Positions 152-13,058 of a DNA stretch of 21,413 bases are shown here, piece after piece; position 1 is the first letter of the stretch, and each line of letters starts with the position of its first letter. Position numbers and translations under genes: made by a program. This DNA comes from Candidatus Thorarchaeota archaeon. GTDB taxonomy: Archaea > Asgardarchaeota > Thorarchaeia > Thorarchaeales > Thorarchaeaceae. The notes under the pieces were generated by a model, which saw nothing but the letters and a program-made list of their open reading frames with translations, did no database searches and had not been told where the DNA came from. The stretch covers positions 1 to 21,413 of the forward strand of contig JAEOUG010000139.1 of assembly GCA_016839445.1 (NCBI GenBank), in the 5' to 3' direction.

Positions 152-221
152 GTCACACCGGGCTCATCGCGTAGTAAAAACCTATTCGCAATTGAGAATT
201 CGAGATGAATGGTTCAATCCA

Positions 222-255
222 TTTATATTCAGTCGCGACTCGAGGCGCTGGAGGA
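222..255 (+). promoter_or_regulatory. Putative archaeal TATA box (TTTATATT, 222-229) and SD (GGAGGA, 250-255) for the ABC operon
   Basis: AT-rich box about 37 nt before ATG 266, with an SD 10 nt before it. Supports a start at 266 rather than 209. Confidence 0.55.
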
Positions 256-265
256 CAGCGGGAAG

Positions 266-3034
266 ATGTTCAGATACGCCTTCAAGAGAGTCGCGCGCGG
301 CTACAAGCTCTTTCTCGCGCTGACCATCGGCATACTGGTCGCGACAACCTTTGTGTCCAGTCTCATCATATCAGCAGACGTGCAGACCAGCATTGTGCTC
401 GAAGATGCTCTTGAGGGCATTGACTACGACGCAAGGATCCAGGCCAACAATGTCACTTGGTCCTCAACAGAATGGAATGAGGTCAGTACAATCATTAACG
501 ACCTCCCTGAGGTCAGCGAACTCGATCGCTATGGCAAGATGAAATACGTGGCAAACGCCTCGGCTGGCATCATATTCGATATAGTGGGGTTAGAGCAACC
601 TAGTACCGTCTGGGATACGGTCCAGTGGATAAACGGCAGTACATCTCTCGGGCCCAACGAAACGTATGTTGTTGCCAGCTCTGTGAATGCGTCCAGGCTG
701 AGTGTTGGCCAGACAATCGAGGTACCTCTAAGCTACTTCACAACAGAGCTGCCCTACTTCGGCCAGACAACTATCAACTTGACGATTGCAGGATTCGTCG
801 ACATTCCTCTCACGACTGCGAGACTGCTCAATCCCCCAACATACATCAGTTTCGGTTTCATTCAGCTAGAACTCGGCAACTGGCGTCAGTATGATATCAT
901 GTTGACGGACTGGACCCAGACAATCCAGCCCATCATTGAGTGGTATTCAGGACAAGAGAATATCACCAGACTTCAGATGGAAACAGGCTTTCTCTGTCAA
1001 CTGAACAGAGACCTCCTGGTAAACCCCTATGATGTCGGTGGTTCGGCATCAAACATCGCCAACGCCATTGCCAAAATAGAGGACCGAACTGCAGCCTACA
1101 ACACCAACATACAGAACCTTGTTGGAGCCACTCTCGGCCTTCTCAGTCTTGCGTCCACGGTGCTTGTTCTCGGCTTTGTAGCATTAGCTGTTCCTGTGGT
1201 CTTCATGAGTTGGTACTCGTCGACGATGCTGAGTGAAGTGAGCTACAACCTTAGAAGGCGTGAGATTGGGCTCCTTCAGACCAAAGGTTTCGGTCCTGAT
1301 ACCATCAAGCGGATGCTGATAATCGAGGGACTAATCATTGGGATTATAGGCGGAGTTCTCGGGCTGTTCGCCGGAGGCGTAGTTGCTCAGTTCGTTTCAG
1401 GAGCTTCATTCAGTGTGACGTTTCGCATCCTGACAGGCAATGTCGTGAATGCCGCAGTCATCATCATCTTCGGTCTAATACTTGCATACTGGTCAATCAG
1501 GGGTCCTGCGGATAGAGCTGCCAGACTAGACCCCCTGGATAGCCTCAAGCAATACGTCCTGGTAGAGGAGCAGAGGGAATACAGAAAGCTGCTCCCTAGA
1601 ATCGCTCTGCTCCTCGGCTCCTACAAGATTATTGTATGGATGCTTGGGATAAGCATACAGACACTCCTTGCGTCTGCGCTGAACACAAGCTTCGTACTTG
1701 TGATAGCAATAGCAATCTGGTCGCCAATAGACCAATTCCTCAACTTCGCGGGTCCAATCCTCTTTCTCTATGGATTGACCAAGATTCTCATTCGAGGGTC
1801 GGAGAAGTTCCAGGAAACGATCATGCGATTGGGCAGAAGGTTCTTTGGCGCCTTCGGCACTCTGGCAACCAGGAACATCAAGAGGAATCCATCGCGCAAT
1901 GCAGCACTGGTGTTCGTGCTCTCATTGATTGTCTCATACGGCGTCTTCAGCGTGGGCGGGTTATTCTCAGAGCAGGACAGGATTCAACGCACTCACCTGT
2001 TCGACGTGGGTGCAGACGCCAATGCGGTGTTCAATCCCGGTGAGAACATGACGCTCATACAGGAGGAGATCCTTGGTATTGATGGCGTGCAAGACACTGC
2101 TGTTGAATACCATGTATCCCTGAGCACGACACGCGGAACTCTTCCAACCAGAGGCATAGACCCTCAGGATTGGCCAAGTGTAGCGTTCTACGAAGAGGCG
2201 TGGTTCTCTGGGCAGGCGCTCTCAGATATTCTGAGCAACTTCACAGGCCATAAGATCATCCTCTCAATTGCCGTGTCTCGACAGCTTGAACTTCGGCTCG
2301 GCAACTATGTGACCGTACGCGGTCCGAGCTCAGGCACTGTATATCAGCTCGAAGTGGTAGGATTCGTAGGGTATGCAAGCCCGTTCGAGTCGATTCTTGG
2401 GCAGTTTGCTTTCGGAGGTAGCTATCCTTCATACGTGCCTGCAGACTTCCTCAATGAGACCGGGATTGTGAGCTATGCAGATGCTCATGTGCTCATATCG
2501 ACCCAAGAGGGTCTCAACGGCACGTTGCTCGAAGAGCAGATTGTGACACAGCTACCACAGACGGCCAGTACAGACTCAGTGACCTCACGAATCATGGAGT
2601 ATGACCAAGCCAGCTATGAGGCGGCCAGCGGTAGAGCTAGAGTCCTCGGGATCTACTTCGCGGCTGCGCTGGCCATTCTCGGTACTGGCCTTGTTGTCGG
2701 ACTCACGCTAAAGGAGAAGGAGTATGAAATAACGTTGCTGGGAGTGCGTGGCTTCACGCGTGGCCAGACGATCAAAGTGCTCGTAGGCGAGGTCATGGTG
2801 ATGGTTCTCTTTGCGCTCATACTTGGCACCATGACAGGCTTCATCCAGCTCTTTGGGGACATCTCGAATACAAGCGAGAACTTGCAGACTCTGGTACGGC
2901 CACGGATCATAACATCGCTTCCGGCAGTCCTTGGTATGCTGGGAATCGTGTTCGCCATTGTCATGTCATCATTGATACCACTGCTACTCTCAACCAGATT
3001 CACGGAGGAGAAGGTAGACGTACTGAGAGAATAG
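266..3034 (+). CDS. ABC transporter permease, FtsX/MacB-like (type VII), two fused permease repeats
   Basis: Two repeats of TM + large extracellular domain + 3 TM. FtsX motifs RRREIGLLQTKGF and KEKEYEITLLGVRGFTRGQ, with linker RNIKRNPSR. Start moved to ATG 266 (MFRYAFKR). Confidence 0.92.
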   Translation: MFRYAFKRVARGYKLFLALTIGILVATTFVSSLIISADVQTSIVLEDALEGIDYDARIQANNVTWSSTEWNEVSTIINDLPEVSELDRYGKMKYVANASAGIIFDIVGLEQPSTVWDTVQWINGSTSLGPNETYVVASSVNASRLSVGQTIEVPLSYFTTELPYFGQTTINLTIAGFVDIPLTTARLLNPPTYISFGFIQLELGNWRQYDIMLTDWTQTIQPIIEWYSGQENITRLQMETGFLCQLNRDLLVNPYDVGGSASNIANAIAKIEDRTAAYNTNIQNLVGATLGLLSLASTVLVLGFVALAVPVVFMSWYSSTMLSEVSYNLRRREIGLLQTKGFGPDTIKRMLIIEGLIIGIIGGVLGLFAGGVVAQFVSGASFSVTFRILTGNVVNAAVIIIFGLILAYWSIRGPADRAARLDPLDSLKQYVLVEEQREYRKLLPRIALLLGSYKIIVWMLGISIQTLLASALNTSFVLVIAIAIWSPIDQFLNFAGPILFLYGLTKILIRGSEKFQETIMRLGRRFFGAFGTLATRNIKRNPSRNAALVFVLSLIVSYGVFSVGGLFSEQDRIQRTHLFDVGADANAVFNPGENMTLIQEEILGIDGVQDTAVEYHVSLSTTRGTLPTRGIDPQDWPSVAFYEEAWFSGQALSDILSNFTGHKIILSIAVSRQLELRLGNYVTVRGPSSGTVYQLEVVGFVGYASPFESILGQFAFGGSYPSYVPADFLNETGIVSYADAHVLISTQEGLNGTLLEEQIVTQLPQTASTDSVTSRIMEYDQASYEAASGRARVLGIYFAAALAILGTGLVVGLTLKEKEYEITLLGVRGFTRGQTIKVLVGEVMVMVLFALILGTMTGFIQLFGDISNTSENLQTLVRPRIITSLPAVLGMLGIVFAIVMSSLIPLLLSTRFTEEKVDVLRE

Positions 3035-3044
3035 AGGTGCTTGA

Positions 3045-3929
3045 ATGGTTAGCTACATTGAAACAAACGATCTAGTGAAGGTGTACAGACTCGGGAACGT
3101 GGAAGTGCAAGCCCTACGAGGGCTCTCGATGAAGGTAGAACAAGGAGAAGTGATTGCCATCGTAGGACCAAGCGGATCAGGCAAGACTACCCTGTTAAAC
3201 ATCATCGGCGGGCTGACCACGGCCACAGCAGGTAGGACCTGGGTTGAGGGCAAGGAAATCACGAATGCGTCTCCAGCACAGCTTGGCTATTTGCGCCAGA
3301 AGATGGTAGGCCATATCTTCCAGACTCTGAACCTGATTCCCACGCTGACAGCTTTCGAAAACGTAGAGCTCCCTATGCTGGCAATAAAGACTCCAGCAGC
3401 GGAGAGAAAGAAGCGCGTCGAGGGACTGCTGACTCGCGTGGGTCTGGAACTGAGGATGCACCACAAACCGGATGAACTCAGCGGCGGAGAAAAGCAGAGA
3501 GTAGCGATTGCATCTGCACTGGCTAACGACCCTCCGATTCTCATTGCGGACGAACCCACAGGCGACCTTGATACTGATACGGGTGCCAAGATTGTGAGGT
3601 TCCTCTTGGAGATCAACAAGGAAATGGGCAAGACAGTCCTGATAGTCACACACGACCCTGGGATCGCTCGGCAGACGGACCGCATCTATCGTATCATGGA
3701 TGGGCAGATAGTGTCCATTCAGAAGCCCAGCGAGTCCGAGGAGTCAAACATTGAGGTCATGCTTCAGATGTACAAGGACAGGCTGCAGGAAACCAACGCA
3801 GAACTGGACGACATCATGACCATGTTCAAGGAACAGAGAATCGATCCAGACAACTTCGCCGAACGGTGGCACAATCTCCATCAGACGAAGAGCTTCCTAG
3901 AACAAGAACTCCACAGGATGGGTTTCTAG
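3045..3929 (+). CDS. ABC transporter ATP-binding protein, LolD/MacB-type, with ~65 aa C-terminal helical extension
   Basis: Walker A GPSGSGKTT, signature LSGGEKQRVAIA, Walker B ILIADEPTGDLD, H-loop VTHD. SD GAGGTG at 3034-3039. Confidence 0.96.
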   Translation: MVSYIETNDLVKVYRLGNVEVQALRGLSMKVEQGEVIAIVGPSGSGKTTLLNIIGGLTTATAGRTWVEGKEITNASPAQLGYLRQKMVGHIFQTLNLIPTLTAFENVELPMLAIKTPAAERKKRVEGLLTRVGLELRMHHKPDELSGGEKQRVAIASALANDPPILIADEPTGDLDTDTGAKIVRFLLEINKEMGKTVLIVTHDPGIARQTDRIYRIMDGQIVSIQKPSESEESNIEVMLQMYKDRLQETNAELDDIMTMFKEQRIDPDNFAERWHNLHQTKSFLEQELHRMGF

Positions 3930-4486
3930 GCCGTAGCGGCAGGCTCGAGAGGGCGCCTCTTGTCATATAGATAGGCAACGAAGAATACGAGAACTGCAAC
4001 CGCGAGGCTCCCTCCAACGACGACCGGAAGCGTCACCAGCGGATTCGGTGGAGGATCAACGCCCACAGAGGCGGTCACAAAGACATCGTACGTTGACCTC
4101 GAGTTGTTCTCCATGTCGAAGGCGAGAAGAGTGACTCTGAAGACCCCATCATTGGGCAACGCGGCAACATCTCGCTCGTATAGTTCGGACGTACCGTTGT
4201 AGGTCATGGCATCACGAATAGTTGCATTTGGTCCCGTCACTATGAGTGTGACATTCCTGACTCCCGACCCACCTTCATCGTCTGTCACGTTGGCCCAGAC
4301 CGAGAATGGTTCGAGAAGCTGCGGACTGCCTTCAATCCCCCAGGCCCAGATTGTTGGCCTTGTCTCATCCTGGCTCACAGTGAAGGACCGCTTGGAATCT
4401 GTGGCGGGACTGTGACTCAGCAGTGCAAGACCACCCAGAGTCATGATCACAAACCCCAGCAGCAGGATGATTCTTCTCGGCTTCAT
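3926..4486 (-). CDS. Hypothetical membrane-anchored surface protein (N-terminal signal/TM, beta-rich Ig-like domain, C-terminal TM)
   Basis: Likely start MKPRRIILLLG at 4486 (ORF open to 4549). Contains VWANVTDDEGGSGVRNVTL, NxT sequons, a Pro-rich linker, and a C-terminal TM followed by KRR. Confidence 0.75.
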   Translation of the reverse strand: MKPRRIILLLGFVIMTLGGLALLSHSPATDSKRSFTVSQDETRPTIWAWGIEGSPQLLEPFSVWANVTDDEGGSGVRNVTLIVTGPNATIRDAMTYNGTSELYERDVAALPNDGVFRVTLLAFDMENNSRSTYDVFVTASVGVDPPPNPLVTLPVVVGGSLAVAVLVFFVAYLYDKRRPLEPAATA

Positions 4487-4564
4487 GACAATCGAGAGTT
4501 GGCTCTCAAATTCCCTAATTAGGGCGTCCATTAGCGCACGAAGGACCATCTATCGGAAACGTGA

Positions 4565-5164
4565 CTATTGCGGTTGGTCCGTAGAATCCTCGGCGTGAGA
4601 TCCAAGAATCAGGTAGCGCGGGACTGCCTTCAGGTACTCTCGATAGATATCGCCATAGCGCTGTAGGCAGTATTGCTCTTCTTCAAGAATCCGAACCCGA
4701 CCCAAGCCACTAGCGAGCAAGCCGACAATGAACGCTGTCCACGAACCCACAATGAGACTGATACCTGACATGACGATGAAGATCGACAAGACCTGAGGGT
4801 TGCGAGAGAAGCGGTAGAATCCCTTCGTTATGGGTTGGTCCAAGGGTGCGGCCCTGAAGCTTATCAAAGCGGCGGCAAAGCCCAACATGCCGAAGCAATA
4901 GACTACAAGCCCCAGATAGAACGCTGTTGTACCAATCGCAAGGGGTGTGAGAATGAGTAGCAGGAGCATCACAAGCGAGCAACCCTTACCAATGGTGAAG
5001 ACCACACGGTGCCGTCGAGTCCACTGAGAGTGATCGTACTCAAAGAGCCGCCCCCTTCGGTCTCTTGGGAAGGACAACACCATTACTAGCTCAAGAAGCC
5101 AGAAGGCCGCCAGAGGGATCCACCCAGTCAGAAGAATGAGCTGAAGTGATGGGAAGAGCTCCAT
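4565..5164 (-). CDS. Isoprenylcysteine carboxyl methyltransferase / phospholipid methyltransferase (ICMT/PEMT) family membrane protein
   Basis: Multi-TM protein with ITKGFYRFSRNPQ and EEEQYCLQRYGDIYREYLKAVPRY family motifs. Start probably MELFPSL (5164); ORF open to 5191. Confidence 0.85.
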   Translation of the reverse strand: MELFPSLQLILLTGWIPLAAFWLLELVMVLSFPRDRRGRLFEYDHSQWTRRHRVVFTIGKGCSLVMLLLLILTPLAIGTTAFYLGLVVYCFGMLGFAAALISFRAAPLDQPITKGFYRFSRNPQVLSIFIVMSGISLIVGSWTAFIVGLLASGLGRVRILEEEQYCLQRYGDIYREYLKAVPRYLILGSHAEDSTDQPQ

Positions 5165-5331
5165 TCCAGGTACAATGAACATCTCTTGCACCGATACTAT
5201 GTCTATGATTCAGGATTTGTATCCTTCCATCCTTTCTGGCCGGTATTCCCTACCTCCTCATCCTAAACTCGCTACTTGAACTCAACCGATGGTGAGAGAG
5301 CATCTTGTGAGCAGCGACGCGCCAGAGTCCT

Positions 5332-8300
5332 TCAAGGTCCAGTCGGATTGATTACCACCTGGTCCTCTTCAAGCCAACAGAAGTCTGTGTCGAACTCACT
5401 CAAGCCAATGTCAGAGAAATGCTCTCGAATCTCACCGTACTCCTGTTTCCGCTTCTCAACATCAGACGCCATCCTCTTGGCATTCACAAGCAATGCGCCA
5501 ATCGTCTTCTTCTCTGGGAGCAGTTCGCCAGTTAGAGACCGTTCCGCCAGACGTGCTGCTTCAAGAATCGTTTCCCATGCTTCGTCACTTCTTCCGCTCC
5601 TGAGCAGCATTCCACTCAGGTTGTTCAGAGAGTTAACAAGGCCATATGCAAACTCGACTGGTGACTGGTCTGCAAGCTGTCTTCTTGATGCAACTGCAGC
5701 CTGAAGATGCTGCTCGGATTCTTCCAGCCTGCCGAGCCTGCACAACAGGATTCCCAAGTTGCTTGCGGTGGACGCATACTCGTTGTTGAACATCTGAGGA
5801 CACGTTTCCGCAAGTCTTCGCTTGATATCATGAGCCCTTCTCAGATGTTTCTCGGCATCAGAGAGATTCTCAGTCTGAATTCTGAGCAGTCCCAAGTTGT
5901 TGTGTAGGGATCCAAGCAGATCCGAGACCATGAGAGTTTCTGGATGCTTCTCAGCTTCTTCCTGAGTCATTTCAACGGCCTCTTGGAAGGATCTTTCAGC
6001 AGAATCCAGCTGACCTCCGAGCCTGAGGATGACGCCTCTGTTGCACAGGAGAGCCGCCTTCTTGTAGCTTGGGAAGTCTGGAATTCGGTGACTGATCGCT
6101 TCGGATAACTGTAAAGCCTCCAACGATAGGTCAAGGGCCTCATCGGCTCTCCCCAGTAGTGCCAGAATCGTGGAGTAGTCGGAGAGAGTCCAGAGAAGGA
6201 TCTTTCCGTAAATCTCTGGAGTGGCCTCATTGAAGGGTCTGACTTCCTCTAGGGACTGCCTGTAGACCTTCTCAGCACGATCGTACTCCCGAAGGGCGAA
6301 AAGGACCGAAGCGTAATTGCTCAAGGCGATAGAGGCACACCAAGGAACATCCGGGTTCTCCTCTCTTGCTTTGAGCATCGAGTCCAGGCATGCTTTGTAT
6401 TGCACTTCTGCCTCTTGTGCTCGGCCTGTGAGGCGCAGCGCTTCTCCCAGCACTCCTCTTGCACCCGCCTTCATATCGACGGACAACGAGGAGTCCAGAA
6501 TGTCTCTTACGAGAGATTCTGCCTCCGATGGCTTGCCCAGCATGAGGCGGATTATGGAGAGATTACCTTTGGAGTGCTCCACGTACTCACTTGCCTGTAG
6601 CTTGAGTGTCTCTGGCGCGGTCGAGTCCTCATCCAGCATGTCACTCAACTCGATAGCCCGCACCAGAGCTGCTTCGCACGAGTTCTCAGCTTCTCGAAGT
6701 CTGTATTGGCTCCACATCAACATGCCATGTCCACGGAGACTTGCCCACCTGATGCTCTTGTCGAAGCGCAGCACCCTTGAGTGGGGGTCTATCCCTTCAC
6801 AGGACGCTATTGCCTCATCATAGAATCTCTCACCTTCCTTGTGTCTTCCCGTCCTGGTGAGAAGCAATGCGAGCCCGCTGCATGCAAGAGCAACAAACAC
6901 CGCCTGTGAGGATCCCTTCTCAGCCACTAGATCCTGGGCAAGAGCCAGGGCCTCTCGCAATACGTGCTCGGATTCTGCGACTCTTTCTTCAATCAAGTAG
7001 GTCCAGCCAAGAGCGTATGCGTAGACGATGTTGCCCCTTGGAGAATCCAAGCGCAGTGGACCTGTCACGAGGGGAGTCAGGTCACGCCGGAACTGCACAA
7101 GGTTGAACACCTCGAACAAGCGCCCAATTCCGCGATCTTCGTCGGCCAAGAACTCAACTGAGATCGCGTGACTCAATAGCGAGGGATCAGGCTCGCTGGC
7201 GTAAGCCGATTCCAGAAGTGTGACGATCTCTCTTGCGAGAGCACGTACTCCTTCCCCAAGTTCTGTCAAGACAAGGTTCTTGGCCAAGTCGTGAAGAACG
7301 AAAGTTCCATCGTCTCTTCCCCTGACGAAGCTAAGTCGAGTAATCCGGTCCCAGTAATCAGATGTCAGCTTTGGGGCTACAATGCCCAGCAACCGGCGAT
7401 TGAAGAAGGGCAGCAACCCGGCCCTGTTGATGAAGTCGTGAAGCCCTTCTGCTTCGCCAAACAGCCGTCTCCAGGTCTTCAAACGTACCTCTTCGAGTGT
7501 TTCTGCTCGTAGTTCATCTATTTCCGATCCGGACAGCTCTTCTGCTTCCATTATGTCACAGATGGCATCGATAACGAAGGGATTCCCGCCACTCACGTTG
7601 ACAATCTTACTAGAGAGGATTTCAGATTCTACATTTCGCAGTCGGAGCAGCTCTCTGCAGCTGTTTCGGTCAAGCTCAAGAAGCTCCTCACTCTCAATCG
7701 AATCAGCGATCTGCTTCGGAGCCTCGAATCTGCTCGCCAGGACTCCGACACAATTCTGAAGAGAGGCCAAAAAGGCGTACCAGAGCTCTGCCTCGGTTAT
7801 CCTTTTACCTTTGTACATCCACTTCGGTTTCTCGGCGTCTGCAATCTCGAACTGGTCAAACAGAAACAGCAACGACTTGTCAGACTTACGTTGGTTCAAG
7901 TCCTCAAGGAGAGCGTCCATGTAGAGGAACTCTGCGTGCCTAGGTTCCTTCCAGAGTACCTCAAGTAGGCGAGACATGTAGTCCTCACCAAGACGGGATG
8001 ACAGCCAGCTACCGATGTCACCATACCGTTCTCTGATCTTCGGCGCTACCTTCTTACCGACAGCAGAAATTGCGCCACCAATTGCAGCGATTGACCCGAC
8101 AAAGGGGATTGCAGCAAGTACTTCTTTAGCCCACTCCCGCCCCGATTCTGCAGCTGGTTCAACTCCCTCCACGAACCGCTTCCGAATGTGCCACAAGAAG
8201 TCGAAGCGGCGCAACCGAACACCAAGCCTGACGGCAGCTCTTGATACTACGTCTAGTCTACTCCAATAGTCCTGGTGCTGCTCGAAATCAATCTGTACGC

Positions 8301-8478
8301 TCTCACTGACCTCTTTGCCCCACTTCGCCAGCAGTGAGCTCTTGCCGATACCACCTATGCCTCTAAGATGTAGCACGACAGACTTGTCTCTGCATCTCTC
8401 AAGGGCATCTCTCATCCATTCAAGGTAGGCTTCCCTATTGACAAAGACACGATCGGCGGGTTCGTAATGCTCGTACAT
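5332..8478 (-). CDS. STAND-like P-loop NTPase with C-terminal TPR array (NLR-like architecture)
   Basis: FVNRE pre-P-loop, Walker A GIGGIGKS, Walker B LLFLFDQFE, sensor VLASR, GxP motif SGGNPF, winged-helix LHDL, followed by many TPR repeats (e.g. LHNNLGLL...AEKHLRRA, TASNLGILL, SLNNLSGML). Confidence 0.88.
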   Translation of the reverse strand: MYEHYEPADRVFVNREAYLEWMRDALERCRDKSVVLHLRGIGGIGKSSLLAKWGKEVSESVQIDFEQHQDYWSRLDVVSRAAVRLGVRLRRFDFLWHIRKRFVEGVEPAAESGREWAKEVLAAIPFVGSIAAIGGAISAVGKKVAPKIRERYGDIGSWLSSRLGEDYMSRLLEVLWKEPRHAEFLYMDALLEDLNQRKSDKSLLFLFDQFEIADAEKPKWMYKGKRITEAELWYAFLASLQNCVGVLASRFEAPKQIADSIESEELLELDRNSCRELLRLRNVESEILSSKIVNVSGGNPFVIDAICDIMEAEELSGSEIDELRAETLEEVRLKTWRRLFGEAEGLHDFINRAGLLPFFNRRLLGIVAPKLTSDYWDRITRLSFVRGRDDGTFVLHDLAKNLVLTELGEGVRALAREIVTLLESAYASEPDPSLLSHAISVEFLADEDRGIGRLFEVFNLVQFRRDLTPLVTGPLRLDSPRGNIVYAYALGWTYLIEERVAESEHVLREALALAQDLVAEKGSSQAVFVALACSGLALLLTRTGRHKEGERFYDEAIASCEGIDPHSRVLRFDKSIRWASLRGHGMLMWSQYRLREAENSCEAALVRAIELSDMLDEDSTAPETLKLQASEYVEHSKGNLSIIRLMLGKPSEAESLVRDILDSSLSVDMKAGARGVLGEALRLTGRAQEAEVQYKACLDSMLKAREENPDVPWCASIALSNYASVLFALREYDRAEKVYRQSLEEVRPFNEATPEIYGKILLWTLSDYSTILALLGRADEALDLSLEALQLSEAISHRIPDFPSYKKAALLCNRGVILRLGGQLDSAERSFQEAVEMTQEEAEKHPETLMVSDLLGSLHNNLGLLRIQTENLSDAEKHLRRAHDIKRRLAETCPQMFNNEYASTASNLGILLCRLGRLEESEQHLQAAVASRRQLADQSPVEFAYGLVNSLNNLSGMLLRSGRSDEAWETILEAARLAERSLTGELLPEKKTIGALLVNAKRMASDVEKRKQEYGEIREHFSDIGLSEFDTDFCWLEEDQVVINPTGP

Positions 8479-8691
8479 CCACCCAACCCCAATGCACGCA
8501 CAGGTTTACCGTGGCAGACGTTTCACATAAGATAGTCGGTCAGCTGCTCGCGGTGGAGTAACCTGGCTGAACGTTCTGCTGATGAAAACGAAACACTGGG
8601 CACACCGGATTGTGGGAAGCGCGATACACTACCGGCACCTCCAGCAACCTTTTCTTGGCAACACTAGTAACTCTCAGGGGAGTTGTGACAG

Positions 8692-10716
8692 ATGCCTGCG
8701 TCCGATCTGGAGCCCGAAATGATCGAGATTCCTATGATGACGGAGAAAGGCGAGAGGCTCAAACCCATTAGAATTCCTAGAGGTTCCACAGATGTGCACA
8801 TACGAGAGGCAGACATCACTGAACCCGACCGCGACCCAACCAGTGGAAGTGTCGATGTCCCTGCTGGAGAGAGAGCGATCATAGACCTGACTGGATTGTC
8901 CGAGGCCGAGAATCTTATCTCCCTTAGAATCACCACGCCGATGCTAGGAAATCTTGACCTCTCTCCTCTCAGTGAATGTAGAAACCTTAGAGAATTCACC
9001 ATCAGGAGTCCACGTGGCCCTGAAGAGAAGATTGTGATAGGAGATATCCTGGACCTGTCGTGGATGTCGAAGAACACCAAGATGAGGTCAATTGAGATTA
9101 GTGATGCCACAGTCAAGAAGATCATCCTCCCCTCCAAGAGTCAGTGGGCAGGACTGAAGACTTTCAGCATTGACCACACTCTGCTAGAGGAAATCGATCT
9201 CTCTTGTCTCAGTCCGTGCGTAGATCTCTATGCTCTTAGTCTTGAGCACAACAAGCTAGAATCACTTGTGCTCCCAGTAATGGACCAGCCCAACAAGATC
9301 AAAGATCTGTCATTGCTGTCCAACCGACTTGCTGATCTCGACCTCGGTCCTGTATCAACGTGGGAGAACCTTGTGAAGATTGAACTAGAAGAGAACCTCT
9401 TGACCCACATCAACTTGGCTCCGTTGAGTTCGTGTCCGTTGCTGCGGAACTTGAATCTAAGCAGGAACAGACTCAAATCACTGGATTTGAGCCCATTGGC
9501 GAAAATGAGAAAGATAGCTTCGATAAGGATCAACTCAAATAATGAGCTGGATCAGCTTTCCGCCTACCCCCTTAGCCATGTAAGAAATCTGACCTGGACT
9601 TCAATGCTAGGAACAGCTATCGAAGAACTCGACGTTTCTCCGCTTCTTCTGACCGGTACAAGCCCCACTGTTAGGATACCAAGTGACCTAAGAAAGAAAG
9701 CATTGAAGATTCTCAAGCCCTTACATTACATGGCCTCATCTGTGCAGAAGAAGCCTCTCTTCACTACAGAGGACTACTCTGTCAAATTAGAAGAGGTCCC
9801 ATGGGACCAGCTGAGATACCTCCTTGCTGCCTTCACAAAGCGAGTTCCTGAGGGTGTGATGGCTGCAGTGTTTCGTGGATTCATCTCCGAGCTAGAGCTC
9901 TCACCATGGGAAGGACTCTACTCTGATCTCGTAGCTCTTCTACCGGAGCTCAGCGCCGAGATGACATACACTCAGATTCGCAAGAGAATCAGCGATGAAT
10001 ACCCCCAGTCCTTGACCGCTCCAACTACCCGAGAGAAGAGAAGCGGCGAGATTCCCGCCTACGAGGACTGCGAGATCAGATACGAAGCCCTCAGAAGAAC
10101 CGAGGCCAAAGGGAAGAACTGGCTCACCATCCCTCCAATAGCCAGTCTGGACTTCGTCGTCGACACTACAGAAGCTGGAGAGGTATTGGTGTTCCGGAGT
10201 CTCAGAATGCGTGACGAAGGGCGGTCACCACCCTATACTCTACCCAAGAAGAAGTCCGTCAAACTTGAGGCTATGCTGGCAGCTCTGGCTGACGTACAAG
10301 ACCCTCTGGTTCCTCGCGTACTTGTCTCACTTCTCAACTCCACGCTAGACCGAATGAAGGAGCCAGTCCACTGGTGGGCGAAGATAGCGGGTGGCTACGA
10401 CCACTTCGTGTCCAAGTATGTCGAAGCAGTGGTTCTAAAGTGGATTACTGAATCCATGACCAAGAGGCATTCCAAAGAAACCGTGAGGCCCCTTATCCGG
10501 ACACTGAGTATTGTGTTCAGCTACAAGCTGTATGAGTGGGATGAGCCCGAAGTTGGGGATGTCAGAGCGATTGTCAAGTCAATTACTAAGATACTGGACG
10601 AGTATGACCTCAGAGGGGAGGTGGAACGTATCCACAATATCCTCAACAGCAAGACGGAACTCCCTGGAGACATCAAGAGCCTGGTTTCCCAGTTAGTATC
10701 TAAGTATGAGCAGTGA
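8692..10716 (+). CDS. Leucine-rich repeat protein with C-terminal alpha-helical region
   Basis: About 22-aa repeats of type LxxLxLxxNxLxxLDLxPLxxC (e.g. LEENLLTHINLAPLSSCPLLRNLNLSRNRLKSLDLSPL). No signal peptide or TM seen. Confidence 0.88.
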   Translation: MPASDLEPEMIEIPMMTEKGERLKPIRIPRGSTDVHIREADITEPDRDPTSGSVDVPAGERAIIDLTGLSEAENLISLRITTPMLGNLDLSPLSECRNLREFTIRSPRGPEEKIVIGDILDLSWMSKNTKMRSIEISDATVKKIILPSKSQWAGLKTFSIDHTLLEEIDLSCLSPCVDLYALSLEHNKLESLVLPVMDQPNKIKDLSLLSNRLADLDLGPVSTWENLVKIELEENLLTHINLAPLSSCPLLRNLNLSRNRLKSLDLSPLAKMRKIASIRINSNNELDQLSAYPLSHVRNLTWTSMLGTAIEELDVSPLLLTGTSPTVRIPSDLRKKALKILKPLHYMASSVQKKPLFTTEDYSVKLEEVPWDQLRYLLAAFTKRVPEGVMAAVFRGFISELELSPWEGLYSDLVALLPELSAEMTYTQIRKRISDEYPQSLTAPTTREKRSGEIPAYEDCEIRYEALRRTEAKGKNWLTIPPIASLDFVVDTTEAGEVLVFRSLRMRDEGRSPPYTLPKKKSVKLEAMLAALADVQDPLVPRVLVSLLNSTLDRMKEPVHWWAKIAGGYDHFVSKYVEAVVLKWITESMTKRHSKETVRPLIRTLSIVFSYKLYEWDEPEVGDVRAIVKSITKILDEYDLRGEVERIHNILNSKTELPGDIKSLVSQLVSKYEQ

Positions 10717-10731
10717 GCTACGGTGTCGTGA

Positions 10732-10985
10732 CTTGGCGGGAAAAGAGCAAGGATGAAAGGGTGGGCGCAGCGTCCTGTGGGCAACGCGATCGCATTGCCG
10801 CGCCACCACCTAATGTTTTGAGCGTCGCATTCCGGGAAACCGATTTTGCAGAATCCCGCAAGATACACACCGCACGCCAAAGTGTGTACACGACCCACAA
10901 TGAATATGCCGCGCCCTAGTCTACAGTATATGTAGGAAGGACTTCCAAGTTAACCCTTGTGGTTGAAGAGACCACGCGTGCCAAG
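10732..10985 (-). ncRNA. Candidate structured non-coding RNA of unknown family
   Basis: Nested complementary segments found by eye: 10732-37/10980-85, 10757-62/10953-58, 10763-71/10908-16, 10775-80/10895-900, 10824-28/10890-94, plus hairpins. The imperfect pairs are G-U on the minus strand and A-C on the plus strand. Confidence 0.55.
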
Positions 10986-11019
10986 GTGATGTTAGTCTAT
11001 AATACATCCTATCAGTTCG

Positions 11020-11025
11020 TTATAA
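11020..11025. promoter_or_regulatory. TTATAA palindromic TATA-like box, possible promoter for the minus-strand ncRNA
   Basis: About 35 nt upstream of the 5' closing stem (10985) of the candidate RNA. A second AT-rich box (TATTATAG on the minus strand) lies at about 10997-11004. Confidence 0.35.
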
Positions 11026-11243
11026 GACTTGCTTGCCTCTGTGTGTTTGAGCGTCATTCAGCGCGGGTTTGCGTTTCGTCGTCAAAGCGTAACCTTTTTC
11101 CGAGAGGAATCATGCATCGACTCATCAGCTTCGTAGAACAAGAGAGACCCTACCGACTATGTGACGAACTGACGATCTGCACTAGACTTGGCTCTCCTCT
11201 CAAATACGATTCAGCTAGCGGAGCTGTTACAGGAGATAATGCG

Positions 11244-13058
11244 ATGCGTGTATACCTCGACGCCAACTTCTTCATCTCGGGATTCTCAGACAGGCCAAAA
11301 GATGTCGGCACAGTGAAGCAGGCGGCAGACAGAATTGATGTCGAGCTATGGATCACAAGACAGGTCTTCCAGGAGCTGAGGTGGTACCTAAGAAGAGAGG
11401 TAGAGAAGATCATCCAGATTGACGAGACCCTCACGAAGGACATCAAGAGCTTCATGGAAAGCATCAACCGACCTGAGAGCTCGCTACCACAATTGAACGA
11501 CATGTCCCTCGTGCTTGGAGCTATGCGAACGAAGGACTCCAAGATAGTGACCAGCGATATGAAGCTCCTGAACACCATTCAGGACCTTCAGGTAGAAGTC
11601 GAGGGAATCGTAGGTTCTGCGTACATCCTCGAATTGATGGAATCAATCGACGATGAGGAACTGAAGAAGAATCTGTCACACATCAGAGAGCGAATCTACA
11701 CCGAAGAAGTGAGGTACAGCATTGCTCGACAGGAAGCATATGACCCCGTCACGAGAATCCGCATCATCGAAGATCATGCACTCCGTGTACTAAGGACAGT
11801 CAAGCGTCCAGCAGAGCAGGTAGACAGACAGCTGTCCCGTGGACAGCCCCTCTTTGTTCTGGATTTCCTCGAAGACATAAAGGCGGACATTCCAAACATG
11901 TTCGAGGACTTCCAACAGGGCAGATATGACACCCTCGCTCAAGAGATAGAGGCTGTTCAGAATGAGATTGAACGCATGCTCATTGTGTCAACGCTCACGG
12001 AGTCCTCCGAAACGCACGGCAAGCTTGTGAAGCATGCCTCTGAGCTGACGCTCTTCCTCTACTACCTTGAGATGATCTGTCATCTCTATCGAGGAACGAA
12101 AGAGGGTATCAGTGATGCCCTCACGATAAGCGAGGAAGCATTTCGGCTTCTCATGTTCGCAGAGGTAGAAAACGATGAGATGAAGGCACAGGTGTTCTTC
12201 GTTCGGATACTCCTCTCACTCATCCGCGAGGACTATGACGAACTGGACTACTTCTACAGCCTTTACGATAGCATGCTGAACAGAGTAGGCCTCGATGAGA
12301 TGATGGAGACAACAGAGGGATTCTATGTGACAATGCAGGTCCTGAGGAAGTTCATGGGTGGCTTTAGTCTGACTCAGTCCAAGTTGAACTACCCACTTGT
12401 CACAATCTCCATGCTCAATGACATATCCAAGTATAGCATCCTGTTCGACGACCACGACAATGCTTGGCAGTTGGCGGTCACAGCCTACAAGATAGGTGTT
12501 GCATACAACCTTGAAGAGGGAGCGATAAACTCGTTTCTCATGCTCTACAAGGTCTCTTCAGCCTCCCACGATAGATTCAATCCTGCACTTGAGAAGATTG
12601 CAGAACATGCCCTCAAGGCCTTTGTCAAGAAGGGGTGGAACACCTCGAACATCACCCCAATCCTTAACGAGGTTCAGGGAAACGTTGCACGGGCTGACAA
12701 CATGGCCACTGGCGGACCTGCCAAACTCAGCGAGATACCCAGTGAAATGAAGGGTTGGATGAACGTGCTCTCACTTGAGAAGGTAGATGGGGAAGAGACC
12801 CTAGTTGTCAGAAACGAGAACCTTCAGGCCAGAGTTGGCATTATCGTCACACACCACCCAGAGCTAAGGAACCTGAAGTCGGGACACAAGGTGGCATTCA
12901 CAGGCGGCGAGTTTGACATCTCTCAGGCGTCGAAGGAGACCACAAAGGACCTTGCAGTTGTCCTTCTGGTCAAACCCAGTCCCGGGTCGGAAATCTCTTA
13001 TGAGGGCGAGTATGGATTTACATACATGAAGGTTGCTAAGCCCGAGGCTGAGGCCTAG
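11244..13058 (+). CDS. PIN-domain protein with long alpha-helical middle region and possible C-terminal OB-fold
   Basis: MRVYLDANFFI...ITRQVFQEL...NDMSLV...IVTSDMKL gives the PIN acidic residues (D, E, D, D). SD AGGAGA at 11231-11236 supports ATG 11244 rather than 10959. Confidence 0.8.
   Translation: MRVYLDANFFISGFSDRPKDVGTVKQAADRIDVELWITRQVFQELRWYLRREVEKIIQIDETLTKDIKSFMESINRPESSLPQLNDMSLVLGAMRTKDSKIVTSDMKLLNTIQDLQVEVEGIVGSAYILELMESIDDEELKKNLSHIRERIYTEEVRYSIARQEAYDPVTRIRIIEDHALRVLRTVKRPAEQVDRQLSRGQPLFVLDFLEDIKADIPNMFEDFQQGRYDTLAQEIEAVQNEIERMLIVSTLTESSETHGKLVKHASELTLFLYYLEMICHLYRGTKEGISDALTISEEAFRLLMFAEVENDEMKAQVFFVRILLSLIREDYDELDYFYSLYDSMLNRVGLDEMMETTEGFYVTMQVLRKFMGGFSLTQSKLNYPLVTISMLNDISKYSILFDDHDNAWQLAVTAYKIGVAYNLEEGAINSFLMLYKVSSASHDRFNPALEKIAEHALKAFVKKGWNTSNITPILNEVQGNVARADNMATGGPAKLSEIPSEMKGWMNVLSLEKVDGEETLVVRNENLQARVGIIVTHHPELRNLKSGHKVAFTGGEFDISQASKETTKDLAVVLLVKPSPGSEISYEGEYGFTYMKVAKPEAEA

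Follow-up and report, generated by a model that had tools for sequence, protein, structure and literature searches.

OLE, raiA, ROOL, and GOLLD are lineage-restricted orphan structured RNAs of bacteria, and OLE additionally occupies a recurring neighbourhood of membrane-protein genes, a likeness to the genomic context of the RNA described here. The tRNA-like domain of transfer-messenger RNA (tmRNA), viral tRNA-like structures, and bacterial YrlA mimic the tRNA acceptor, and the SAM-I, cobalamin, and NiCo riboswitches have aptamers with a junction closed by a P1 helix. To our knowledge, few structured RNAs besides the universal ones are known from archaea. The present analysis concerns a 21,413-nucleotide (nt) stretch of DNA from a Candidatus Thorarchaeota archaeon (assembly GCA_016839445.1, contig JAEOUG010000139.1, positions 1 to 21,413), referred to below as the window, in which an earlier note made from the letters alone had proposed an unannotated structured RNA on the minus strand. 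That proposal holds: the RNA is almost certainly real and new, with strong comparative support for its fold and no match in Rfam. It is read here, with a probability of roughly 55%, as the product of a stand-alone gene (10916-10760, minus strand) for a ~157-nt structured RNA, constituting a new family restricted to one Asgard family.

The region sits between two plus-strand genes, one for a leucine-rich repeat (LRR) protein (8692-10716) and the other for a protein of 604 amino acids (11244-13058). As set by the alignments, the conserved structured RNA occupies 10760 to 10916 of the minus strand, with its first base (G1) at 10916 and the final C of a 3′ ACC at 10760, for a total of 157 nt. In both blastn loci and alignments, homologues diverge completely upstream of GGGC and downstream of CCCACC plus a pyrimidine tract. 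The conserved unit is therefore only ~157 nt (10916-10760), rather than the ~254 nt (10732-10985) originally put forward. When 10717-11010 served as a blastn query, query positions ~94-256 were the sole part covered by most matches. A covariance model (R1) matches the window at 10754-10919 with 148.5 bits, and homologues are 160 to 173 nt long, counting 3 + 6 flanking nt.

No known RNA family accounts for this unit. The covariance-model search that the earlier note had called for, made with Rfam 15 (4227 models), gave no match at gathering score across the whole window, and with E-values up to 10 in the interval 10600-11150 it returned only SNORA44, mir-207, and HOTAIR_3 at 11-19 bits, far under their cut-offs. 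Full-text searches of the literature listed no description of such an RNA, and no structured RNA beyond the universal ones from Asgard archaea. The RNA is accordingly rated as a new family of a kind that is not assignable so far, with no known family or clan that fits. "New" is used here in the sense of lying outside known families and clans, and implies no new mechanism.

The fold is carried by a 45-pair consensus in a MAFFT alignment of 48 distinct sequences (alignment A2). Fully 95.7% of its 2128 cells are paired, versus 80.8% in shuffles and 32-45% in slid controls, and changes on both sides are seen in 32 of the 45 pairs; none of 500 shuffles reaches any of these measures. Since the sequences in A2 are related, the shuffle count is no probability, although the slid controls, which keep that relatedness, are also far lower. 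RNAalifold, applied independently to 25 homologues, yielded 44 pairs, of which 32 were compensatory. Conservation and covariation in relatives, for which the earlier note had proposed a search, are thus both in evidence, with 32 of 45 pairs compensatory over 48 sequences.

Read 5′ to 3′ on the minus strand, the structure opens with a 9-bp terminal helix, H1, in which 10908-10916 (GGGCGCGGC) pairs with 10763-10771 (GCUGCGCCC); 97.5% of its cells are paired and 5 of 9 pairs are compensatory. GGGCGCGGC starts with three G that never vary, and C occupies its fourth position in 47 of 48 sequences. The end formed by GGGC.../...GCCC plus ACC is invariant or near-invariant, and the rest of H1 covaries. 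The ACC itself (10760-10762, minus strand) is single-stranded and invariant, and the base after it is U in 37 of 48 sequences, C in 11, and A in none. An asymmetric internal loop seen in the alignments, with a variable 5′ side (10899-10907) and a 3′ side at 10772-10776, leads from H1 to H2 (10893-10898 with 10777-10782; 94.8% paired, 4 of 6 pairs compensatory), which closes a four-way junction. The three other arms of the junction all carry invariant or near-invariant loops. Hairpin arm H4 (10862-10891; 91.5% paired, 8 of 10 pairs compensatory) has a loop with the invariant sequence GGCGUGC (10872-10878), and hairpin arm H5 (10833-10858; 94.5% paired, 7 of 8 pairs compensatory) is capped by the A-rich loop CAAAAU (10843-10848). 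The last arm, H6 (10783-10831, with 10822-10831 facing 10783-10793; 98.6% paired, 8 of 9 pairs compensatory), has the helix consensus AAUGCGRC/GYCGCGUU, closes a ~28-nt loop that holds the invariant GGUGGUGGCGCGGCAA (10795-10810), and abuts H2 without a linker, so that it is flush with the closing helix. The 16 nt of GGUGGUGGCGCGGCAA are identical in 48 of 48 sequences, but most of these were gathered using that motif as the search pattern; 20 loci derived from blastn carry it too.

The assignment of the RNA to the minus strand, already made in the earlier note from imperfect pairs, is upheld because G-U cells outnumber A-C cells in the helices by 279 to 14. Single-sequence folding gives a weaker signal. 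For the interval first proposed (10732-10985), the minimum free energy (MFE) of the minus strand is -92.2 kcal/mol (z = -2.40, with 5 of 200 shuffles as good), versus z = -1.66 for the plus strand; the minus strand is the better of the two, yet the signal is modest. The refined 157-nt RNA alone has z = -2.32, versus -1.14 for the opposite strand, and its single-sequence fold differs from the comparative one.

Ten helices were listed in the earlier note. All are present in the window at the places given for them, and the MFE fold reproduces most of them; as part of a conserved structure, they fare unevenly. In an alignment of 48 distinct homologues with flanks (A4), where slid controls have 35-40% of cells paired, four of the helices stand: GGGCGCGGC/GCUGCGCCC (95.9% paired), UACACACU/GGUGUGUA (88.3%), UUGUGG/CCACAG (84.8%), and CGGGA/UCCCG (75.1%). 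The closing stem CUUGGC/GCCAAG (38.3%) and the hairpins GUGGU/ACCAC (39.2%) and CUACA/UGUAG (29.7%) are at chance level. The AAGGGU/ACCCUU helix reaches 54.9%, but shows a change on both sides in only 1 of 6 pairs. Two further helices conflict with H6 and are not kept, namely GUCGU/GCGAC (79.0% paired, double change in 1 of 5 pairs), which could be an alternative conformer, and the hairpin GCAAUGC/GCGUUGC (90.0% paired, double change in 1 of 7 pairs, and 26 gaps in one column). A suggested alternative pairing of GUCCU with AGGAC, the candidate for a long-range P4-type pairing as in archaeal RNase P RNA, is likewise not supported: its 5′ arm (10943-10939) precedes G1, in a stretch that could be aligned only within the genus.

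Signals that may delimit a transcript are found on both sides of the conserved unit. A BRE/TATA-like element (TFIIB recognition element plus TATA box), AAGGGTTAAC (10949-10958, minus strand), lies ~33-42 nt upstream of G1 and contains the AAGGGU arm mentioned above. Its TATA-like counterparts in other genera lie 24-40 nt upstream of G1. A TATA-like pattern is found at -46 to -23 in 38 of 48 homologues, whereas a control zone has it in 12 of 48. A/T content is highest at -41 to -39 and at -36 to -32, and 92-94% of homologues have A or T at positions -2 and -1. The TATA-like boxes pointed out earlier (11020-25 and ~11000) do occur in the window sequence, but it is the element at 10958-10949 that recurs at a similar distance in most homologues; the 5′ end and promoter first proposed are not supported. 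Directly after the ACC is a pyrimidine-rich/oligo-U tract, CUUUCAUCCUUGCUCUUUU (10742-10759, minus strand), which is a probable terminator. The earlier note had pointed to this tract as well; it is real and its composition is conserved, with a pyrimidine fraction of 0.79 at +1 to +15 versus 0.51 at +31 to +45, and a T4 run within +20 in 30 of 48 homologues versus 6 of 48 in a control zone. The conserved RNA would thus be flanked by a promoter element and a terminator signal of its own, as for a stand-alone archaeal small RNA gene.

With respect to distribution, the RNA is confined to a single Asgard family, whose genomes public records title Candidatus Thorarchaeota. A covariance-model survey covering the entire family detected it in 68 of 86 genomes, in all 16 genera, and in 21 of 23 high-quality genomes, and in a phylum-wide sample model R1 matched 24 of 26 family genomes and none of 124 other Asgard genomes. 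A blastn search of 10717-11010 versus 61 related genomes gave a consistent picture: 27 genomes matched, including its own, with 26 of 36 from the same family and none of 24 from outside it. At syntenic loci of the sister family, no relative was detected with the covariance model, even with filters off. When 185,579 species genomes were scanned for exact occurrences of the invariant loop motif plus CCCACC, there were 58 matches, of which 49 were archaeal (nearly all titled Candidatus Thorarchaeota, the rest Promethearchaeota or uncultured archaeon, plus one metagenome-assembled genome (MAG) labelled Hermodarchaeota) and nine were GC-rich bacterial sequences sharing the typed motif alone. The archaeal nature of the RNA, as the earlier note had it, agrees with this result. 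A viral origin was considered and set aside, as a viral contig collection gave 0 matches.

Copy number is uniformly low, with one copy in the window's own genome (G000) and one in every other matched genome except G014. There, a full copy (C53:15201-15368) is accompanied by a second match that is cut by a contig end (C20:62970-63019), and the 3′ flanks of the two (loci L078 and L083) differ; the gene is probably not truly duplicated, and strain heterogeneity or a split assembly would explain the pair. The MAG titled Candidatus Hermodarchaeota (L085) has flanks near-identical to those of a Thorarchaeota MAG (L046), and its copy could be a matter of labelling or binning and not a sign that another class has the RNA. 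Copies from genus g31 (G061:C65:46957-47153; G176:C180:3832-4058) measure 197-227 nt and have a lower score of 101 bits, which indicates an insertion somewhere in the fold. A single-contig genome of the same genus, G175, gave no match.

The RNA keeps characteristic company. In most relatives it is directly followed by d190, a gene for a ~190-residue surface-anchored protein with a signal peptide, an immunoglobulin (Ig)-like middle part, and a C-terminal membrane anchor, for which Pfam and NCBIfam gave no informative family. Next come a MacB-type ATP-binding cassette (ABC) permease (~925 residues in relatives, with FtsX and MacB_PCD domains) and an ABC ATPase, so that the usual order in the family is RNA-d190-permease-ATPase on one strand. 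Among 25 RNA-positive genomes of the phylum sample, 24 have d190; it is immediately downstream of the RNA in 14 (gaps of 76-205 nt), on the same strand at 1.3-6.2 kb in seven, and in another arrangement in three. In the remaining genome, G029, d190 is missing and the RNA is directly followed by the permease.

The window departs from this order. There, d190 (3926-4549, minus strand; identified through tblastn, alignment A3, and the genome survey) is 6.2 kb away from the RNA, and the permease (209-3034, plus strand; Pfam FtsX, 59% identity to the permease of relatives) and ATPase (3045-3929, plus strand; Pfam ABC_tran) converge on it. Since relatives carry all three genes co-directionally after the RNA, this genome carries a local inversion of the transporter genes, barring an assembly error in the contig. 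The 6.2 kb that separate the RNA from d190 hold three genes: the opposite-strand LRR gene, one for a STAND-type NTPase that has tetratricopeptide (TPR) repeats (5332-8478), and one for a PEMT/ICMT-like methyltransferase (4565-5191). This slot (4565-10716 in the window; also L046, L047, L059, L064, L066, L071, L034, and L011) holds different genes in different genomes. The genes are functionally unrelated, including LRR, STAND-TPR, methyltransferase, M3 peptidase, NosD-like, ferredoxin-like, and major facilitator superfamily (MFS) genes, and no integrase was seen among the inserted open reading frames (ORFs) scanned. The slot is an insertion-tolerant or hot-spot position.

Further upstream signals are associated with d190 itself. 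A conserved TATA-like sequence, CTAATTAAG, is located 17-38 nt before the d190 ATG in several clades (loci L041, L079, L025, L027, L018, L080, L062, L045, L033, and L029), preceded in some clades by GCGCTAACAAGCGAGC. These sequences probably represent the promoter of the d190/ABC operon, together with a possible regulator site. In the clade without d190, the permease has a TATA-like element too.

On its other side in the window, the RNA is divergent from the gene for the 604-residue protein (11244-13058, plus strand), which has an N-terminal PIN domain by a weak Pfam match (PIN_12). This gene adjoins the RNA in 22 of the first 27 loci but is tens of kb away in other genera. The protein is 66-77% identical across the family, has full-length relatives of 24-43% identity in many other Asgard families, and has no sequence match in NCBIfam or PDB, so that it stands as an Asgard protein that is conserved but has no assigned function. 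As a candidate partner of the RNA it was rejected, since it occurs in 83 of 151 Asgard genomes and is adjacent in some genera only, a link of synteny alone.

A stand-alone gene is favoured over a leader for four reasons: the RNA has a promoter-like element and a terminator-like tract of its own, separate promoters seem to serve the genes downstream, loci that rule out read-through have an unchanged RNA, and the genes inserted after it share no theme. The window is a case in point, as the RNA is intact there (148.5 bits) despite an opposite-strand gene and ~6 kb of DNA before d190 and the inverted transporter genes. In such a gene, transcription would start from the BRE/TATA-like element, a few nt before G1, and end in the pyrimidine/oligo-U tract just past the ACC, so that the product would be discrete and stable. 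The A-rich loop and the two G-rich ones, GGCGUGC and GGUGGUGGCGCGGCAA, may form a tertiary core or else a surface to which a protein or small ligand binds, and the GGGC...GCCC-ACC end could provide defined, protected ends or a recognition element. The RNA would act in trans. A tie to the envelope module, that is the small surface protein and the MacB-type ABC transporter, is suggested by conserved linkage alone. The spacing GG-U-GG-U-GG-CGC-GG in the invariant loop also raises the idea of a two-tier G-quadruplex. A role as an antisense guide was rejected, as the sole genomic complement of the 18-nt loop with up to two mismatches is the opposite strand of the gene itself.

A number of observations weigh against the stand-alone gene. 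Its conserved placement shortly before the d190/ABC operon, in the same direction, is leader-like, with only 62 nt from the ACC to the permease ATG in one clade, and in G035 and G036 the RNA, the d190 orthologue, and the permease are all unmatched. The flanking signals are not universal, with the TATA-like pattern missing in 10 of 48 homologues and the T4 run in 18 of 48; the ends, abundance, and even expression of the RNA are predictions from genome sequence. Mutual information with average product correction over the alignment gave only clade-level signals, with no extra Watson-Crick pairing or pseudoknot, and the invariant loops gave no covariation with other positions. In addition, 18 of 86 family genomes are without a match, including G035 (97% complete, 20 contigs), G036, and the single-contig G175, and five genomes show none even at E-values up to 10. 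The RNA is therefore probably dispensable and a poor fit to a housekeeping ribonucleoprotein (RNP); were it essential to housekeeping, near-complete genomes would not be expected to lack it. Finally, the tRNA-end likeness discussed below is incomplete.

In the most serious rival reading, the RNA would act in cis as a leader of the d190/MacB-type ABC operon, either as a riboswitch-like aptamer or as an attenuator; this is considered possible but clearly less probable than the stand-alone gene. H1 together with the U/pyrimidine tract directly after it would serve as an expression platform, in which a stabilised H1 would favour termination by the archaeal RNA polymerase; otherwise, read-through into the operon would follow. 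The build of the RNA is aptamer-like, with a closing helix, a multi-way junction, and invariant bases in junction and loops. Transporters are common riboswitch targets, and the RNA immediately precedes d190 on the same strand in the 14 of 24 genomes noted above, and the permease at gaps of 62-103 nt in the clade lacking d190. In most loci, the genes inserted between the RNA and d190 share this direction as well. Against this, d190 and the permease carry TATA-like elements at leaderless-type distances from their ATGs, and the inserted downstream genes have no common function. The RNA is fully conserved where read-through is impossible, as in the window, with the opposite-strand LRR gene next and the ABC genes inverted, and in L067 and L015 the next ORF is likewise on the opposite strand. 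The joint absence of RNA, d190, and permease from G035 and G036 can be cited for a leader, but it follows trivially from adjacency, with one deletion removing all three. One copy per genome in a single context also speaks against a leader.

A bolder and somewhat more doubtful proposition is that the RNA represents a new functional class in the closest archaeal relatives of eukaryotes, either a ligand sensor or a tRNA-acceptor mimic. In the first form, if true, the GG-U-GG-U-GG-CGC-GG loop would be a binding platform that gates oligo-U termination before an efflux-type ABC operon. In the second, the RNA would be processed or charged by the tRNA machinery and work with the adjacent envelope module.

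As a separate alternative, a tRNA-acceptor mimic handled by tRNA maturation (RNase P at G1, 3′ trimming, and CCA addition), and perhaps charged for use outside translation or serving as a landmark where foreign genes insert beside it, is improbable. Its appeal lies in the invariant GGG, with C next in 47 of 48 sequences, facing GCCC plus ACC. Six tRNAs of the same genome have matching ends: ARAGORN made 22 predictions there, of which 20 end in CCA and six begin with GGGC or GGGT and end in GCCCACCA. The last arm of the four-way junction lies flush with the closing helix, which is cloverleaf-like, and gene content just 3′ of the RNA is highly variable among genomes. No integrase is among the inserted genes scanned. 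ARAGORN finds 0 genes in the window, and no tRNA, tRNA-Sec, or tmRNA model matches at E-values up to 10. Signatures of a T-loop or a D-loop are missing from the aligned sequences, as is an anticodon-type loop of 7 nt, and the loop of H5 varies without a fixed triplet. Moreover, the base after the ACC is U or C, though the genome's own tRNA genes encode CCA, leaving the likeness to a tRNA end incomplete. As a side note on these tRNA predictions, several are 104-138 nt long, probably with introns, and three look spurious: one of 352 nt labelled "tRNA-Pyl(cta)" and two of 1.5-2.2 kb.

That the RNA is instead a highly diverged version of a known one, such as a second RNase P-like or signal recognition particle (SRP)-like RNA or an intron-rich tRNA gene, is very unlikely. 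Its size and multi-helix build are in range, and the 9 bp of H1 recall archaeal tRNA-Sec acceptor stems, which also have 9 bp. However, no Rfam model matches, and the genome has its canonical RNase P RNA (RF00373; C155:31260-31600, 150.6 bits) and archaeal SRP RNA (RF01857; C7:9197-9506, 98 bits) elsewhere, with no match to the former on the window contig or to the latter in the window. The distribution, limited to one family and missing from some near-complete genomes, is also unlike that of universal RNAs. The earlier note had likewise found no sign of RNase P RNA, SRP RNA, or a tRNA, and this bears up, the first two being on other contigs and ARAGORN negative in the window. Other candidates were tried and discarded. 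A resemblance of the GUG-GUGG-CGC mini-hairpin to the SRP Alu domain was dropped, given that the genome's own SRP RNA is without such a loop; tRNA, tmRNA, and intron-rich tRNA were set aside with ARAGORN and Rfam negative and the loops variable; and for a Ro/Y RNA, PF05731 (TROVE) had 0 matches in the genome (89.8% complete), in a search whose control matched two of 14 genomes.

A conserved DNA element or small protein-coding gene in place of an RNA is scarcely credible, since although at least one stop-free frame spans ~165 nt in 39 of 48 homologues and short ORFs overlap the region in the window, the substitutions in the helices are compensatory and strand-specific (279 G-U versus 14 A-C), 26 of 48 homologues are longer or shorter than the window copy by a number of nt that is not divisible by 3, and the AUG of the window ORF is absent in other genera.

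The comparative support for this RNA (32 covarying pairs, invariant loops, and a clean distribution) is of the kind that has preceded new riboswitches, ribozymes, and RNPs in bacteria. Its significance is limited by its occurrence in one family only and its probable dispensability. Nonetheless, it is a defined target for transcript mapping, structure probing, and pull-downs in Thorarchaeota-rich material, and its acceptor-like end and linkage to a MacB-type transporter provide concrete hypotheses.

The RNA resembles acceptor mimics, riboswitch aptamers, and orphan RNAs in one respect each, and is a member of none of these groups. In common with acceptor mimics, it has paired ends (GGGC.../...GCCC-ACC) as in several of the genome's own tRNAs and a last junction arm flush with the closing helix. 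In contrast, it is without a T-loop, D-loop, anticodon loop, or encoded terminal A, and its end helix is set apart from the junction by an extra helix and internal loop. Neither ARAGORN nor Rfam gives a match, and no TROVE/Ro protein was found in the genome.

Like junction riboswitches, the RNA has two ends that form a closing helix and conserved bases concentrated in junctions and loops, and most genomes have it ahead of a transporter operon on the same strand. Unlike them, it has no similarity to their models, the genes downstream appear to have their own promoter, and it is conserved when uncoupled from the operon, as in the window.

Relative to the orphan RNAs of bacteria, the present RNA is Asgard archaeal, is much smaller than OLE, ROOL, and GOLLD, and shares no sequence or Rfam model similarity with them. 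The likenesses are nevertheless several. As with those RNAs, its biochemical function is not deducible from sequence, and it is found in one lineage, usually as a single copy, with a conserved multi-helix fold, many covarying pairs, and invariant loops.

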